Assembly (NCBI GenBank): GCA_002372315.1
Contig: DFFU01000026.1
Span: 1,230 to 65,229 of the forward strand
Length of the DNA: 64,000 nt
From: Alphaproteobacteria bacterium UBA3768
Lineage (GTDB): Bacteria; Pseudomonadota; Alphaproteobacteria; CAAHEQ01; UBA3637
Reading direction: 5' to 3'
In this document: one piece after another, positions 7,025 through 35,313 of the stretch
Layout: each line of letters starts with the position of its first letter
Position numbering within the stretch: position 1 is the stretch's first letter
The notes under the pieces: generated by a model
Database searches by the model: none
What the model was told of the DNA's origin: nothing
What the model saw: the letters and a program-made list of their open reading frames with translations, nothing else
Position numbers and translations under genes: made by a program

Positions 7025-7147
7025 TTTTTTCCTCCTTTTTTCTATTAAAAAAGGACGGTATTTAAACCGTCCTGCTAGATGTTTAAATGGGGTCATTTTA
7101 TCAGATATTGATAAAATATGTATTCTTTTTTTAAACATCGCGAAGTT

Positions 7148-7176
7148 ATACTATCTATGTTAGATGCAATTGTCAA
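7148..7176 (-). promoter_or_regulatory. sigma70-like promoter TTGACA-17-TAGTAT for the ATPase-CYTH gene
   Basis: Minus strand: TTGACA (revcomp of 7171-7176), 17 nt, TAGTAT (revcomp of 7148-7153). The 17-mer ATTGTCAAGTAAAAAAT is identical to the one in the lexA promoter at 5889-5905. Confidence 0.4.
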
Positions 7177-8403: not shown

Positions 8404-9603
8404 CTATTCGTCTTTATTGGTTTTGAAATTGCCAGAGCCGGCATTACAGAAAAGTTTTTTTGTTACTTTATCAAACATACAAGGTTCGCCTGAGTATTGT
8501 GATGATTCAGGCGAAAGAACGGGGATGAAATCACGAATAAGTGTTCCGTTATGATATATTTTACAGTAATACATCTTGCCAACATAGTTTTTTTCCCTTG
8601 GATTTGCTTTAAATAAAAGTATATTAGAAAAAACGGTTTGTTTTGCTCTCAAAGTTCCTGTTGTAGTTACCCCATTTACAGTTAAACTTTTTATTAAAGT
8701 ATCTCCATTTGCTTCAGCACTTATATAAAAGTCGTTTGCACCAGAAAAAGTAGCAGAAGTAGTATTTACATCTGCTGGATTTGGTGCTTCTTTTGTATAA
8801 TTAAAAACATATTTTTGATATAAACCTAAAACATTTCCACCACCATTCAGAATATAATATCCAACTATATCTTGTTCTGCAGTTGGCATATCAGGTGTAT
8901 AAACGTGTGTTTCGTATTTTAAAGTCGTTGAAGTTGGCACATAACCCGTATCAATATACTGTGCTCCAGTGGATTCCAAATATTCCAGTTTTTCGCAGCC
9001 ATCTTGACAGGAGTGCGCTTCAAGATTACAAACCATACATTCATTTTCTTGATTACAATCCTCATTCGTTTCACACGCATGGGTAGGGGTAGCACAAGAC
9101 CCTATACAAATCCCTTGACTTTGACCATCCGCTATTTGACATACCCCACATACATTACAATCTAAATCGCTGTGACAAAATTTTGTGGAAACAGCACCTT
9201 CTAAATTTTTATGAAATGTCCATTCAAATTGATTCGTTACAACACACGTAAAGGGTATAATTTGGCTGGCCAAAGGCATCCCCTTATTTAACAGCTCCTG
9301 ACAAATGGATTGGGGAATATTGGATACAACCAATTTAAAGTAGTCCTGATTGACCTTTTGGGCAGACACAGGATATTTATCATCAATTTTATTGGAAAAA
9401 TCGGATAAAGCACATTCTGTCCGATCCATCATGACCATTTGAGCAGAACACGTATGTGCCATCATATTGATATCGTGTAAAATCGTGTTGGCATCATGGG
9501 AATTGACTATATGGCGATATCCCCATATCCCCACAACAGACAATATACCCACTATAGCCAATGTCCCCAACATCTCTGTTAAACTGCGCCCGCGCTCTGT
9601 CAT
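8404..9603 (-). CDS. prepilin-type (class III signal) N-terminal domain protein with a Cys-rich central region, 399 aa
   Basis: N-terminus MTERGRSLTEMLGTLAIVGILSVVGIWGY has the G/RSLTE processing motif with Glu at +5 and a hydrophobic helix. The central region has about 20 Cys (CNVCGVCQ..., CMVCNLEAHSCQDGC). Strong SD AAAGGAGG upstream. Confidence 0.6.
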   Translation of the reverse strand: MTERGRSLTEMLGTLAIVGILSVVGIWGYRHIVNSHDANTILHDINMMAHTCSAQMVMMDRTECALSDFSNKIDDKYPVSAQKVNQDYFKLVVSNIPQSICQELLNKGMPLASQIIPFTCVVTNQFEWTFHKNLEGAVSTKFCHSDLDCNVCGVCQIADGQSQGICIGSCATPTHACETNEDCNQENECMVCNLEAHSCQDGCEKLEYLESTGAQYIDTGYVPTSTTLKYETHVYTPDMPTAEQDIVGYYILNGGGNVLGLYQKYVFNYTKEAPNPADVNTTSATFSGANDFYISAEANGDTLIKSLTVNGVTTTGTLRAKQTVFSNILLFKANPREKNYVGKMYYCKIYHNGTLIRDFIPVLSPESSQYSGEPCMFDKVTKKLFCNAGSGNFKTNKDE

Positions 9604-9627
9604 GATAACCTCCTTTTAAAAATAAAA

Positions 9628-9662
9628 AATCCACTTTTTTAAAAGTGGACGGACGCTGAAAA
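9628..9662 (-). terminator. Rho-independent terminator on the minus strand immediately upstream of the pilin-like gene RBS
   Basis: Minus strand reads TCCACTTTT AAAA AAGTGGA followed by TTTTTTATTTTT. Confidence 0.5.
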
Positions 9663-9780
9663 ACTGTCATGTCGAGCAGTGCTACTTATTCAATATATTC
9701 AGTAGACCATCCGCCCGCAGGCGGTACTCCGACACGAACGGAATTTCAGTTCCGGCTTATGTGCAATGACATAAGCAGAG
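9640..9780 (-). ncRNA. candidate structured small RNA or riboswitch-like leader (promoter to terminator, about 140 nt)
   Basis: Minus-strand promoter TTGACA (revcomp of 9807-9812), 17 nt, TAAATT (revcomp of 9784-9789). It is followed by a relatively GC-rich segment with several hairpins (GCUUAUGU..ACAUAAGC, CGGAA..UUCCG, CCGCC UGCG GGCGG) and ends at the terminator at 9628-9662. Confidence 0.35.
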
Positions 9781-9880
9781 CCAATTTAAATCATTTTAGA
9801 TAAAATGTCAAATCAAAATTATTAAAAATTTTGTTGCATTATATAAAAAAATAGTTTAAGGTACTGAAAAAGGAGTTATC

Positions 9881-10576
9881 ATGAAGAAAAAAATAAACAG
9901 TGATTTTCCAGATTTGTCTTGGCGTCGTTACCTTGTGCCACCTGTTCATAAAGAGGGTTTAAAAATTTTAGGGGTTGTTTTGACTATCTCTATTGCATTT
10001 GGGTTCATTTCTGCATGGTTTGGGTTGCTTTTTGGCCCATTCTGTGTGTTTTCATTCTATTTCTTTCGTAATCCTGAACGTGTTGTTCCAACAGGTGAGA
10101 ATTTGATTTTGGCCCCTGCTGATGGTATCGTATGTAAAATAGAAGAAGTGGATACCCCTAAGGCTTTTAAAATGAAAGATAAAAAGTTGACACGTGTGAG
10201 TATTTTTATGAGTGTCTTTAATGTGCATGTGAATCGTGCACCTGTTTCGGGAAAAGTGACTGCTTTAAATTATCATCCAGGAAAGTTTGTCAGTGTTGCC
10301 GAAAAAGATAGTGAAGATAATGAACGTCAAGAAATTTTGTTGACAACTGACAACAAAGTTCAGTTAGCTTTTACACAAATTGCAGGTTTGGTAGCCCGTA
10401 GGATTTACTGTCCTTTAAAAGTAGGGGATGACTTGAAAGCAGGACAAGTCTTTGGGATGATTCGTTTTGGATCCAGATTAGATGTTTATTTGCCCAAAAA
10501 AGTAAAACCTGAAGTATTGGTAGGCCAAACAATGGTTGCAGGTGAAACTGTTATCGCAAAATTAGGTGAGGAGTAA
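9881..10576 (+). CDS. psd: phosphatidylserine decarboxylase proenzyme (small type)
   Basis: 231 aa with the C-terminal self-cleavage motif region FGSRLDV (GST-type), just upstream of pssA. Confidence 0.85.
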   Translation: MKKKINSDFPDLSWRRYLVPPVHKEGLKILGVVLTISIAFGFISAWFGLLFGPFCVFSFYFFRNPERVVPTGENLILAPADGIVCKIEEVDTPKAFKMKDKKLTRVSIFMSVFNVHVNRAPVSGKVTALNYHPGKFVSVAEKDSEDNERQEILLTTDNKVQLAFTQIAGLVARRIYCPLKVGDDLKAGQVFGMIRFGSRLDVYLPKKVKPEVLVGQTMVAGETVIAKLGEE

Positions 10577-30872: not shown

Positions 30873-31571
30873 TCACCTGTGCGGTTCGTTTTTTTCTGCT
30901 TTTTTCAAGATATAACCACGCCCCCAAACATTTTGAATATAATCTTCATCACCTGTTAGAGCTTTAATTTTTCGACGTATTTTGCATAAAAAAACGTCTA
31001 TTATTTTGCTATCTGGGGGCTCATCCATAATACCATAAAGTTGGTTAATAAAGTTATCTTTGCTAATAGTAGATCCTTGATTAAGTGCCAGTAATTCTAA
31101 TAATGCGTATTCTTTTGCTGTTAAAGGAATTAATTTATCGCCAATAGAGGCTATTTTGGTATTGATGTTGATATTCATTTTTCCAATGCGAATATTAGGA
31201 TCAGAAAAACCACAACTTCGGCGAATAAGCGCTTTAACACGTGCTAATAATTCGATTCGTTCATAGGGTTTTGTTAGATAGTCATCGGCCCCTAAATTTA
31301 AACACTCAGCCTTCTTTTCTGTTTGATTAATAGCTGATAAAATAAGAATAGGTGTATTATTTTTTTGCAGACGAACCTGCTTTAAAACATCTATACCCTT
31401 TATATCTGGTAGCATTAAATCAAGGATGATTAAATCATAGTCATATAATTTAATCAATTCCAAACCATCATGTCCTGTATGGGCAGACTCAGGAATCATT
31501 TGTTCTCTTTTTAACAGTAAGGCGATATTTTGGTTTGCAATCTTATCATCATCTATAATCAGTATATGCAT
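30873..31571 (-). CDS. ctrA: cell-cycle response regulator CtrA (OmpR family)
   Basis: MHILIIDDD with D51 (LDLMLPD), T/K motifs and a winged-helix C-terminus. Strong similarity to Caulobacter CtrA blocks (DYDLIxLDLxLPDxxGIDVL, GADDYxTKP). Confidence 0.85.
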   Translation of the reverse strand: MHILIIDDDKIANQNIALLLKREQMIPESAHTGHDGLELIKLYDYDLIILDLMLPDIKGIDVLKQVRLQKNNTPILILSAINQTEKKAECLNLGADDYLTKPYERIELLARVKALIRRSCGFSDPNIRIGKMNININTKIASIGDKLIPLTAKEYALLELLALNQGSTISKDNFINQLYGIMDEPPDSKIIDVFLCKIRRKIKALTGDEDYIQNVWGRGYILKKAEKNEPHR

Positions 31572-31673: not shown

Positions 31674-32207
31674 ATGACAATACGAAATTTGAAAAAACAT
31701 TTTATCTGTAATACGGCCGAATCAGGGCGTACTATGGTTGAGTTGATGGCTGTTTTGGCTATCATTGGTGTCCTTTCAGTTGGGGGATTTTGGTTGTTTA
31801 AAACTTCCAATCAAGAACGACAGGTTGATGATATTATTTATCACATGAATATACAGGTAGCACAGATTTATCCTGCATTGGAGCAAAATGGACAATTTTC
31901 TTCCAAAAAAGATTTAGATACCTTTTTGTTATCTTTTAAAAAAGAAGTGGGTGATTACATTTTGACCTTTCAATCCGATCCGAATGCAAGTGGAAACGAT
32001 TTTATGATGCAAGTAACAAAGGCCAATGGAGAACCTATTAAAGGGGGAATGTGTCGTAAGCTTATTTCCAAAATGTCAGAACTAAAAATGGCCCAAGATG
32101 TTTCTTTTTCATTGAAAGATGAAGAAATGGAAGATGGAACTATCCAAGATGTGATGGTACCTTTAAATGAAAGAATTATTGATTACAAATCGGTTTGTGG
32201 AGATTAA
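31674..32207 (+). CDS. prepilin-type N-terminal domain protein (pilin/pseudopilin-like), 177 aa
   Basis: MTIRNLKKHFICNTAESGRTMVELMAVLAIIGVLSVGGFW has G/RTMVE with Glu +5 and a hydrophobic helix, the same unusual Arg +1 as the 8404-9603 protein. Confidence 0.55.
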   Translation: MTIRNLKKHFICNTAESGRTMVELMAVLAIIGVLSVGGFWLFKTSNQERQVDDIIYHMNIQVAQIYPALEQNGQFSSKKDLDTFLLSFKKEVGDYILTFQSDPNASGNDFMMQVTKANGEPIKGGMCRKLISKMSELKMAQDVSFSLKDEEMEDGTIQDVMVPLNERIIDYKSVCGD

Positions 32208-33360: not shown

Positions 33361-33546
33361 AATGAAGCTCGCTTTGATCCTGCTGACACAGGGGAGCGTA
33401 AGGGAAGAAAGGCTTTTTAGGCTGATTAGAACCCTTCGGGTTGCGCCCGTAACAGCGTGCTTAAGGGGATTCATAGGATCCTGAAGTCAGGTGGCACAGC
33501 GAACGAAATTCGCCCTGACGCTTAACAAAAAGAAAAAGGAAATATT

Positions 33547-35313
33547 ATGCAAACTTACAGAACAAAATTATGTGGCGAACTACGCTCCACAGATGCAGGG
33601 AAAGAAGTCATTCTTTCGGGATGGGTTCAAACCAAACGTGATCATGGAAATTTATTATTTGTGGATTTACGTGATAATGATGGTATCACACAATGTGTTG
33701 TGGATGTAAATGCACCCTGTTTTAAAGAATTGGAAAAGGCACGTCCTGAATCCGTTATTCGTGTGGAAGGGAAGGTTGTCCTACGTGATCAGGCCACTAT
33801 CAATCCCAAAATGCCTACGGGCGAAATTGAATTGGTTGTGAACAATGTAAAAACATTGGGAGAGGCGCAAGTTTTGCCATTTTTGATTACAGCTGATTCA
33901 TCAGAATTATCAGAAGAACAACGTTTAACTTATCGTTTCTTGGATTTGCGCCGTAGTAAACCCCATGCCAATATCTTAATGCGTAATCGTCTGAATAAAT
34001 TTGTAAGAGATGCGATGTGGAATATGGGATTTACGGAATTTCAAACACCGATTTTAACTTCATCAAGTCCAGAAGGTGCTCGGGACTATTTAGTGCCATC
34101 TCGTGTTCATAAGGGGGAATTTTATGCTTTACCACAATCTCCACAACAATTTAAGCAATTACTGATGGTGGCAGGTTTTGATCGGTATTTTCAATTGGCG
34201 CCTTGTTTTCGTGATGAGGACAGTCGTGCTGATCGTTCGCCAGGTGAATTTTATCAAATTGACTGGGAAATGTCTTTTGTAACTCAAGAAGAAATTATGG
34301 AAGTTGGGGAAAAACTGATCAGTGCTATTTTCAAAGAATTTGCCCCAGAAGCTATCTGTTCACAGGCTCCTTTCCAACGCATTCCATATGATGAAGCAAT
34401 GTTGACCTATGGGACAGATAAACCAGATTTGCGTAATCCACTTAAAATTATCGATGTCTCGGAGGTTTTTGCGGGTTCTGAATTTGGTATTTTCGCCAAT
34501 ACTGTGGCCGAAGGTGGTTTTGTGCGTGCTATTCGTGCTCCTAAATCGGCTGATAAACCTCGCAGTTGGTTTGATAAATTAAATGCCTTTGCCGTTGAAA
34601 ATGAAATGGGTGGCTTGGGCTATATCGTTCGTACGGCAGAGGGCAACAAAGGGCCTATCGCCAAGAAGTTGGACGAAGCCCGCCTCAACAAATTATTTGA
34701 ATTGACTGGCTTGGAAGTTGGCGACAGTGTGTTCTTTGTCTGTGGTAAAGGCGAAAAAACAGCCCTTTTTGCTGGTAAAGTCCGCAACTTATTGGGCAAG
34801 GAATTAGATCTTTTTGAAAAGAATGCTTTTCGTTTTTGTTGGGTCGTGGATTTCCCATTTTATGAAATGGATCCAGACACAGGAAAGCCGATGTTCAGCC
34901 ACAACCCGTTCTCTATGCCTCAGGGCGAATTGGAAGCTTTGCAAAACAAAGATCCTTTAACTATTAAGGCCTATCAATTTGATATGGTGGGGAACGGCTT
35001 GGAAATGCTGTCAGGGGCCATTCGTAACCACAGACCTGATGTGATGTTTAAGGCCTTTGAAATTGCAGGCTATGGTAAAGAAGTTGTAGAGGCTAAATTT
35101 GGAGGTATGTTAAATGCCTTTAAGTATGGTGCTCCTCCACATGGTGGAGCAGCCTTCGGATTTGACCGCATTGTGATGATGTTGGAGCATGAAGACTTTA
35201 TTCGTGAAGTTATTGCGTTTCCATTCAATCAACAGGCACAAGACCTTTTGATGCATGCGCCGTCCGTAGTTACAGAGCAACAACTGCGTGAAGTGCATAT
35301 TAAGTTGCGCTAA
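33547..35313 (+). CDS. aspS: aspartate--tRNA ligase
   Basis: Class II aaRS motifs ([28 protein letters not shown]) and an N-terminal OB-fold anticodon-binding domain. 588 aa. Confidence 0.95.

Follow-up and report, generated by a model that had tools for sequence, protein, structure and literature searches.

A conserved leader RNA with two competing folds, probably a default-off transcription attenuator, precedes pilin-like genes in uncultured Alphaproteobacteria

The minus strand of a 64,000-nt stretch of Alphaproteobacteria bacterium UBA3768 (contig DFFU01000026.1), the whole of which was analysed and is hereafter termed the window, encodes a predicted pilin-like protein (8404..9603), and the intergenic region in front of this gene contains a promoter, a GC-rich folded segment and an intrinsic terminator just before the translation start. 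This arrangement raises the question of whether the region is transcribed as a regulatory leader of the pilin-like gene or as an independent small RNA (sRNA), both of which had been put forward in the original prediction made for this locus. That prediction is supported by the conservation of the region, the covariation of its helices and an alternative pairing at the base of the terminator, and we suggest that the region probably represents the 5′ leader of the pilin-like mRNA and functions in cis as a two-state transcription attenuator that is off by default.

A sigma-70-type promoter is located on the minus strand at 9783..9811, comprising a -35 box TTGACA (9811-9806), a 17-nt spacer and a -10 box TAAATT (9788-9783). 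It matches ten of the twelve consensus positions, confirming the promoter that had been read by eye, and transcription is predicted to start near 9776, ~7 nt past the TAAATT box. The leader RNA on this strand (9776-9620, ~155 nt) is rich in G+C, reaching 50% over positions 9641-9770, whereas the window as a whole has 35% and the intergenic DNA on either side 18-24%, and the RNA of 9790-9620 folds with -57 kcal/mol, versus -38.9 +/- 3.5 kcal/mol for dinucleotide shuffles (z = -5.1; 0/200 as good). The GC-rich folded segment of the original prediction thus stands, but not its division into four independent hairpins, as H1, H4 and H5 are local, P1 and H3 are long-range helices and the last element is the terminator. 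This intrinsic terminator (9618..9650) consists of a stem-loop at 9650-9629, GTCCACTTTT-AAAA-AAGTGGAT (arms also written GUCCACUUUU-AAAA-AAGUGGAU), with nine pairs and a 4-nt loop, followed by UUUUUUAUUUUU, a U6-A-U5 tract at 9628-9618. A G+C stem-loop (-9.4 kcal/mol) directly before a U-rich tract is therefore present, as is typical of intrinsic terminators; the canonical terminator with its AAAA loop had been correctly recognized, while the U8 tract attributed to it is in fact U6-A-U5. A Shine-Dalgarno (SD) sequence, AAGGAGG (9615-9609), and the ATG start codon (9603-9601) follow on the same strand (9601..9615), with 26 nt between the end of the terminator stem and the ATG, in agreement with the short gap that had been anticipated.

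The upstream neighbour, psd (9881-10576), is divergently oriented on the opposite strand and no same-strand gene is found upstream, so that the terminator can act only on transcripts from the leader promoter. The locus accordingly shows the layout of an attenuation leader, with a predicted promoter of its own, a terminator between the predicted start and the open reading frame (ORF), and no other promoter. Only three terminator-like hairpins in the 64-kb window have an SD sequence and ORF start at most 55 nt downstream, one of which merely ends aspS, indicating that the arrangement is no general habit of this genome. It furthermore extends beyond chance, since 13 other distinct loci show it as well, with covariation.

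These loci, which belong to metagenome-assembled genomes (MAGs) of uncultured Alphaproteobacteria and carry leader homologues before pilin-like paralogues, were recovered via psd, a DNA pattern and homologues of the downstream protein. Eight close copies, designated type A, comprise the window and loci L003, L004, L011, L012, L013, L026 and L027, and in these the pilin-like ORF lies 26-38 nt downstream of the RNA, except in L003, where the contig ends just past the terminator. The diverged leaders are those of L014, L019 (with the same leader in L020 and L021), L030, L015 (also in L016), L017 and L004 359-450, while L018 contains only the 3′ part of an L017-type leader. Although too divergent to be detected by nhmmer, the diverged leaders share one design, namely a sigma-70-type promoter, a structured leader of 190-260 nt, a terminator, and an SD sequence with start codon, the terminator and start codon being 20-33 nt apart in the five that were measured. 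As the gap is only 20-38 nt in all 13 leaders, no second promoter fits between terminator and start codon. All 13 related leaders have a -35 box (TTGACA, TTGACT or TTGCAA) and a -10 box of the form TAnnnT at a constant distance from H1, and a terminator is found in every one of them, the weakest being that of L017 (tail UGUUUC).

The RNA accompanies the pilin-like genes and not their neighbours, with flanking genes varying between psd/rplM, ychF, rpmJ-groES, rlmN, parC, aspS, dnaX, xseA and others. Six psd loci (56-61% identity) without a pilin-like gene lack the leader RNA, and for this reason its interpretation as a psd leader was rejected. At least four leader loci, on different contigs or positions, are present in a single MAG, GCA_002373615 (UBA3637). 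No second copy was identified by blastn within the 64-kb window, and a pattern scan of the metagenome yielded one additional locus only. Nucleotide identity between the leaders is 62-88%, versus 19-67% identity for the downstream proteins; between the window and L004 it amounts to 76.5% for the leader, 75.8% for rplM, 67.5% for psd and 47% for the pilin-like coding sequence.

The fold of the leader was derived from RNAalifold and minimum free energy (MFE) folds, and covariation was evaluated on a model-based alignment of the eight close copies. In the resulting closed fold, hairpin H1 (9755..9776; GCUUAUGU-CAUUGC-ACAUAAGC), seen in the MFE fold and with compensatory changes in 4/8 pairs, precedes a long-range helix, P1. 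The 5′ strand of P1 (9739..9754) is formed by CGGA-A-CUGAAA (9754-9744), followed by UUCCG (9743-9739), and its 3′ strand is UUUCAG-CG-UCCG (9650..9661); the helix is supported by the MFE fold and by compensatory changes in 5/11 pairs. A multi-branch domain (9668..9736), likewise supported by covariation, is closed by H3 (CGUGUCG 9736-9730 with CGACAUG 9674-9668; 8/9 pairs) and holds H4 (CCGCC 9724-9720 with GGCGG 9715-9711) and H5 (9708-9678; 6/8 pairs). The 14-nt H5 loop, GAAUAUAUUGAAUA (9700-9687), is nearly invariant, being identical in seven of the eight copies, and H4 combines an invariant stem with a variable loop. Besides the H4 stem, no variation occurs in the outer CGGA:UCCG pairs of P1 and in the terminator. 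Overall, 95.8% of the cells in the closed fold are standard pairs, compared to 34-48% after a shift of the partners by 1-3 columns, and compensatory changes occur at 24/51 pairs, with 0/500 shuffles reaching the pairing and compensation values. The comparative alignment of related leaders that had been envisaged for this locus thus disposes of the objection that the structure might lack conservation. The layout in which P1 adjoins the terminator appears in the MFE fold of 12 of the 13 leaders, taken over all types. Within the 5′ strand of P1, UUCCG (9743-9739) can also pair locally with CGGAA to give a transient hairpin, H2, which forms first in length-by-length folding and is then displaced by P1.

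A second pairing competes with this fold at the base of the terminator. Segment e, GGGCGGAUG (9708..9716, minus strand), consists of the H4 3′ strand plus AUG and would serve as the 5′ half of the outer stem in a candidate antiterminator. Segment g, CGUCCGUCC (9647..9655, minus strand), combines the tail of the P1 3′ strand with the three nucleotides that open the terminator stem. The two are complementary and form a 9-bp duplex of -15.9 kcal/mol, for which the window copy has a shuffle p of 0.04. Every one of the 13 leaders contains an e:g complement of 9-11 bp (p = 0.000-0.04 against dinucleotide shuffling of the leader interior), which overlaps the terminator by 2-4 nt in each case. The respective e and g segments are GGGUGGAUG and CAUCCACUC in L015, GGCUGGAAG and CUUCCAGUC in L014 and L019, GGUUGGACG and CGUCCAGCC in L030, GGUCGGGGAG and CUCUCCGGCC in L017, and GGUUGGAAG and CUUCCAACC in the second copy of L004. 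The complementarity is specific to this position, as a 12-nt probe across the P1/terminator boundary is the sole probe with a strong partner (z = -2.2 to -4.6), whereas probes 6-12 nt upstream or 12 nt downstream of the boundary give z-values near 0. Across the leader types, 98.5% of the e:g cells are paired, two to six pair types occur at 5/9 positions, and the sequence GGNNGGA is retained across four types. The elements of the locus, their conservation, the covariation of the closed state and the position-specific e:g complementarity are thereby demonstrated.

The e:g stem and the closed fold are mutually exclusive, in that the H4 and P1 strands are reused and the basal terminator nucleotides are taken; without its four basal pairs, the terminator hairpin drops from -9.4 to -0.2 kcal/mol. 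The alternative fold is a three-way junction, composed of e:g as its outer stem, of H5 and of a small hairpin, CUG...CAG, in the region of the H3 3′ strand. As segment e has a local partner in every leader type (H4 or its equivalent), of a strength similar to e:g, the layout corresponds to an anti-antiterminator (H4, aided by P1), an antiterminator (e:g) and a terminator.

In the proposed off state, the nascent RNA would form H1, followed by P1 enclosing the H3/H4/H5 domain, with the terminator directly beside P1. Most transcripts would then stop at the U-tract as a ~155-nt RNA, leaving the gene silent. In the on state, GGGCGGAUG would quit H4 and pair with CGUCCGUCC as the outer stem of the three-way junction, consuming the P1 3′ end and the three basal terminator nucleotides, so that the terminator would be blocked and the polymerase could enter the gene. 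Read-through would need an effector, since the closed state is clearly more stable, and this effector might either stabilise the three-way junction or occupy the 5′ competitor strands. A macromolecule, whether protein or RNA, appears more likely in this role than a metabolite, as paralogous leaders of the same genome keep the architecture but few core or junction nucleotides.

A number of observations weigh against the attenuator. Within the eight close copies e:g is invariant and hence shows no covariation, and its support across types makes use of model-fitted or hand-guided alignments. By nearest-neighbour energies, the nested alternative fold lies +7.6 to +22 kcal/mol above the closed state, and +3 to +20 kcal/mol above it in nascent RNA that precedes the 3′ arm of the terminator. 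Its equilibrium probability is ~0 at every transcript length, which rules out a purely thermodynamic switch. Duplex and longest-helix shuffle tests for P1 were mostly not significant individually, and the support for this helix therefore derives from covariation and MFE folds. Homology of the whole leader across types is not statistically established by the closed-state covariance model, in which L015, L019, L030 and L014 score 9-17 bits, within the range of noise. One homologue family of the downstream protein, P0037, has a plain promoter and no leader, as does the small pilin-like gene at 31674-32207 of the window. Finally, we infer from the sequence where transcription starts, that it terminates, that read-through is conditional and what kind of effector is involved.

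The thermodynamic preference for the closed, terminated state is also what would be expected of a stand-alone trans-acting sRNA, in which the ~155-nt terminated transcript is itself the product, with the H5 loop serving for example as seed or protein-binding site, and the pilin-like gene receives incidental read-through. The invariance of the AU-rich 14-nt H5 loop in 7/8 close copies fits this explanation, as does the description of the nearest Rfam relative, sRNA-Xcc1 (RF02221), as an 88-nt sRNA of Xanthomonas campestris detected on Northern blots (PMC2996969). The similarly arranged Brt RNAs of Bartonella are also abundant and short and have been proposed to act in trans (PMC5387305). However, a pilin-like ORF invariably adjoins the RNA, leaving no room for a further promoter, and the RNA tracks this gene into unrelated neighbourhoods, while the conserved complementarity at the terminator base has no role in a pure sRNA. 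Near-matches of the H5 loop in the window occur at chance level (E = 0.15), one in the same sense within an ORF and one in an AT-rich spacer; with only such chance-level 13-mers, the loop was rejected as an sRNA seed. The sRNA alternative is thus weakened, and we consider it unlikely.

The original prediction could not assign the region to a riboswitch class by eye, and scans against Rfam likewise matched no family. At Rfam 15 gathering thresholds the whole window yields five tRNAs only, leaving the leader unmatched, and no c-di-GMP-I/II (cyclic di-GMP), T-box or other known riboswitch or leader class reaches its gathering threshold. A permissive scan of 9560-9900 (341 nt; E <= 10) returned only a small nucleolar RNA model (E = 0.78), and no description of this leader was found in full-text literature searches. 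The leader is a previously undescribed and uncatalogued conserved structured RNA. Its fold could nevertheless harbor a metabolite or ion riboswitch, with the P1-enclosed junction as aptamer and the ligand shifting the balance between the closed and alternative folds. P1 indeed closes a multi-helix junction, its 3′ strand is common to the expression platform, and the conserved unpaired nucleotides of the close copies cluster at the junction and the H5 loop. Besides the lack of any Rfam riboswitch match in the 341 nt at E <= 10, this explanation is countered by paralogous leaders of the same genome, for example L004, L018 and L020 of UBA3637, in which the helices are preserved but the junction sequence hardly is. 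The paralogues were missed by nhmmer and are marginal by the covariance model, unlike copies of one aptamer class, and the genes concerned encode surface proteins, with no metabolic link pointing to a ligand. As the paralogues share no conserved core, the metabolite riboswitch is weakened and appears quite unlikely.

Other established leader types were examined as candidates. Leaders regulated by ANTAR proteins contain tandem hairpins with hexanucleotide loops carrying A1 and G4, the second of which overlaps the terminator (PMC3369931). By inspection, the present leader contains no such pair of hairpins, its sole hexaloop being that of H2 (CUGAAA), which is without A1/G4, and only long-range stems adjoin the terminator. 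Both the ANTAR and T-box readings of the leader were rejected by inspection and Rfam. A leader-peptide attenuator was also rejected following inspection of the alignments, as the AUGs in H1 are without an SD sequence and the frames and lengths vary from copy to copy through 1-2-nt indels. CsrA-type GGA sites and a BoxA-like 5′ sequence were considered as well.

The alternative fold, rather than the closed one, links the leaders to a known RNA family. The L030 leader matches sRNA-Xcc1 with 33.2 bits (E = 2.5e-4 on 251 nt; gathering score 53 bits), the 9-bp outer stem of the model corresponding to e:g, and an Xcc1-type three-way junction is found in the leaders' alternative fold, the second hairpin of which covaries across types (CUG:CAG, CUA:UAG, UUA:UAA). 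RF02221 did not match the window copy (E <= 10), L014 or L019, and no leader reaches the gathering score of 53 bits; with L030 sub-threshold and these three unmatched, membership of RF02221 was rejected. When the alternative-fold model was built from the eight close copies only, L030 scored 32.6 bits (E = 4e-5) and L015 gave E = 0.03, with L019 and L014 placed at the right coordinates. A cross-type alternative-fold model, from the training set of which the window, L004 and all Xcc1 sequences were excluded, scored the window at 84.9 bits and the held-out L004 359-450 at 43.1 bits (E = 1e-7). Besides the reverse-strand image of this L004 copy, its best remaining matches were in Pasteurella multocida (L033) and Neisseria gonorrhoeae (L034), at the exact positions of Xcc1 elements that are genuine members of RF02221 (66.4 and 68.8 bits, respectively), yet with E-values of 0.03 and 0.4. 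Overall, the models built from leaders place both Xcc1 elements at E = 0.03-0.9 only. An H5-like match at L006 9575-9638 was dismissed as noise inside an ORF of the other strand, and no Xcc1 homologues were found in E. coli genomes.

The likeness to sRNA-Xcc1 resides in the 9-bp G/C-rich GGNNGG outer stem, a first hairpin with A/U-rich loops of the GAAUA type, a short second hairpin, a UUYUNAR linker, and the 3′ strand of the outer stem followed by AC and a U-run, and Xcc1 elements also lie just 5′ of ORFs. The leaders differ in an additional 5′ part of ~70 nt (H1, the 5′ strands of P1 and H3, and CCGCC), through which the Xcc1-like domain adopts a different structure that is supported by covariation, and in an outer stem that overlaps a canonical terminator, which that of the examined Xcc1 elements does not. 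The genomic context differs too, with the leaders preceding chromosomal pilin-like genes in Alphaproteobacteria and Xcc1 elements occurring on phages, plasmids and integrons of Beta- and Gammaproteobacteria. The resemblance may reflect either distant homology or convergence.

Integron cassettes contain Xcc1 elements that are located upstream of symE (bioRxiv 10.1101/2025.06.18.660453). Among the loci considered here, one (L035 1501-1574), in Aggregatibacter phage S1249, is flanked by ant and a gene for a Q-like antiterminator, a second is found (L033 1185-1268) 40 nt upstream of a KilA-N gene on a P. multocida plasmid, and a third (L034 1185-1270) immediately 5′ of an ORF in a mobile element of N. 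gonorrhoeae. All three have a conserved terminator-like motif, GUGAUUUUUUU-GUAUCUGUAA, ~60 nt upstream. This placement and the upstream motif suggest a cis-regulatory, late-leader role for the sRNA-Xcc1 family.

Lambdoid late leaders consist of a strong promoter, a short terminated leader and then the gene, and this layout is shared by the pilin-like leaders. Read-through might hence be driven by processive antitermination, brought about by a trans-acting protein, such as a Q-like or specialised NusG protein, or in a put-like manner by the RNA itself, with GGNNGGA as loading or pause signal instead of one strand of a switch. The position of the phage S1249 element beside a Q-like gene and the retention of GGNNGGA across four leader types are consistent with this, and a parallel exists in gut Bacteroides, where leaders specific to each locus and specialised NusG paralogues together control surface structures. 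No such factor gene was identified, however, and none is linked to the loci, the neighbourhoods of which all differ, and such a mechanism leaves unexplained both the partner strand that covaries with GGNNGGA, always including basal terminator nucleotides, and the covarying competitor helices P1 and H3. We therefore regard it as very unlikely. For the attenuator preferred here, a more elaborate version can be tentatively entertained, although it is less likely to be right than wrong: the RNA would constitute a dedicated switch in which the Xcc1-like three-way junction is the sensor, and binding of a partner flips the paralogous leaders to read-through. Were this so, the diverged leaders of the pilin-lectin paralogues of one genome would permit a paralogue-by-paralogue choice of surface adhesin, and the widespread Xcc1 elements found on phages, plasmids and integrons would gate the adjoining downstream genes in cis, besides or instead of acting as sRNAs in trans.

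The protein encoded downstream of the leader (8404..9603, minus strand; 399 amino acids) starts with a prepilin-like G|RSLTE-type signal with Glu at +5, from which a long helix leads via a linker rich in Cys to a beta-sandwich at the C-terminus. It scores 13.2 bits against TIGR02532, the model of the prepilin-type N-terminal cleavage/methylation motif, for which the cut-off is 16.3. An AlphaFold2 model (mean pLDDT, the predicted local distance difference test score, of 76) shows a 54-residue N-terminal helix (6-59) packed on a beta sheet, as well as the Cys-rich linker and C-terminal sandwich. The latter gave weak ConA/LamG-like matches in Foldseek (best E = 2e-3), which returned no significant pilin structure match. 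None of 227 homologues contains a Pfam domain, and the few for which a source is named are from Alphaproteobacteria MAGs. The protein is plausibly pilin-like and, on the basis of the modelled sandwich, might conceivably be a lectin-like adhesin. A second pilin-like gene of the window (31674-32207, plus strand; 177 amino acids) exceeds the TIGR02532 cut-off with 21.5 bits, has a plain TTGACA promoter and is divergent from an adjoining OmpR-type response regulator gene (30873-31571, minus strand).

Several of the leader-bearing genes show further peculiarities at their 5′ ends. Window 9601-9650 and L012 2451-2503, from the same sample but another contig, are identical over the terminator-to-start stretch (~48 nt) and the first 15 codons, whereas the rest of the leader is 83% and the proteins 67% identical; gene conversion or recent recombination may account for this. 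The L004 359-450 paralogue (minus strand) in the UBA3637 MAG follows rpsI directly and has a TTGACA promoter of its own, and the ORF downstream of it opens with tandem AAPRMTKNKQC repeats and palindromic inserts rich in G+C, after which the contig stops. Long G+C-rich N-terminal extensions precede the pilin signal at L004 2701 and L011 499, and these may be extra untranslated leader and not coding sequence.

Other putative RNA elements were observed in the window and related genomes. Upstream of aspS (33547-35313), positions 33365-33520 (plus strand) resemble a T-box leader in which Stem I is almost deleted, with a sub-threshold RF00230 match (39.2 bits; gathering 93; E = 1.8e-7 on 331 nt) and a retained antiterminator sequence, AGGUGGCAC..CG. 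The same weak match is found upstream of aspS in a related MAG (L015 1019-1172, minus strand; 34.3 bits). To our knowledge, T-boxes are not expected in Alphaproteobacteria. The rpsI terminator (7205-7184) is closely followed at 7052-7073 (minus strand) by a hairpin resembling a terminator, AGGACGG-UUUAAAUA-CCGUCCU followed by U5, which is located 28 nt before the SD sequence and ATG (7024) of an AAA_28/CYTH-domain gene, with a promoter-like TTGACA near 7175. This hairpin may represent a second short attenuator, or be internal to the ORF if the true start is the ATG at 7138. The bacterial small signal recognition particle (SRP) RNA at L019 1115-1212 (minus strand) scores 38.1 bits against an Rfam gathering score of 40, and the housekeeping RNAs of this lineage are therefore divergent enough to escape default thresholds.

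The leader adds a covariation-supported, uncatalogued family of cis-regulatory RNAs from uncultured, apparently gut or rumen Alphaproteobacteria, which would control multi-copy pilin-like proteins with putatively lectin-like C-terminal domains, possibly adhesins. Its two mutually exclusive conserved folds offer a clean system for the study of attenuation, and the distant link to sRNA-Xcc1, a family that is still poorly understood, suggests that Xcc1 elements may act in cis, which can be tested.

Among known systems, c-di-GMP riboswitches precede type IV pilin genes, for example pilA1 of Clostridioides difficile. As in the present locus, a pilin gene is thereby placed under a 5′ leader with an intrinsic terminator, but the leader matches neither c-di-GMP-I nor c-di-GMP-II, and fold and phylum differ. 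The three-element attenuators, including pyr/PyrR and trp/TRAP of B. subtilis (PMC3064811) and terminator-type riboswitch platforms, follow the same logic, in that segment g is common to the terminator and antiterminator (e:g) and segment e is sequestered in the local H4. The leader differs from these in being without (G/U)AG repeats, a PyrR binding loop or ANTAR dual hexaloops, in having P1 as a second competitor for g, and in an antiterminator that forms the outer stem of a three-way junction. A further parallel is provided by the genus-specific Brt1-9 RNAs of Bartonella, located upstream of the trp1-9 genes, which encode helix-turn-helix regulators (PMC5387305). Compared by their described architecture only, these are likewise alphaproteobacterial, highly structured RNAs of ~200 nt, present in several copies per genome, each directly upstream of a paralogous gene and with a terminator-like structure at the 3′ end, and they have been proposed to be riboswitch-like attenuators and possibly also trans-acting sRNAs (PMC5387305). 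They differ in the downstream genes, which encode helix-turn-helix regulators as opposed to pilin-like surface proteins, and in the evidence at hand, with expression data but no covariation analysis for the Brt RNAs, and covariation for the present leader. A dual role in cis and in trans, as proposed for the Brt RNAs (PMC5387305), is compatible with everything seen for the leader of the pilin-like gene.

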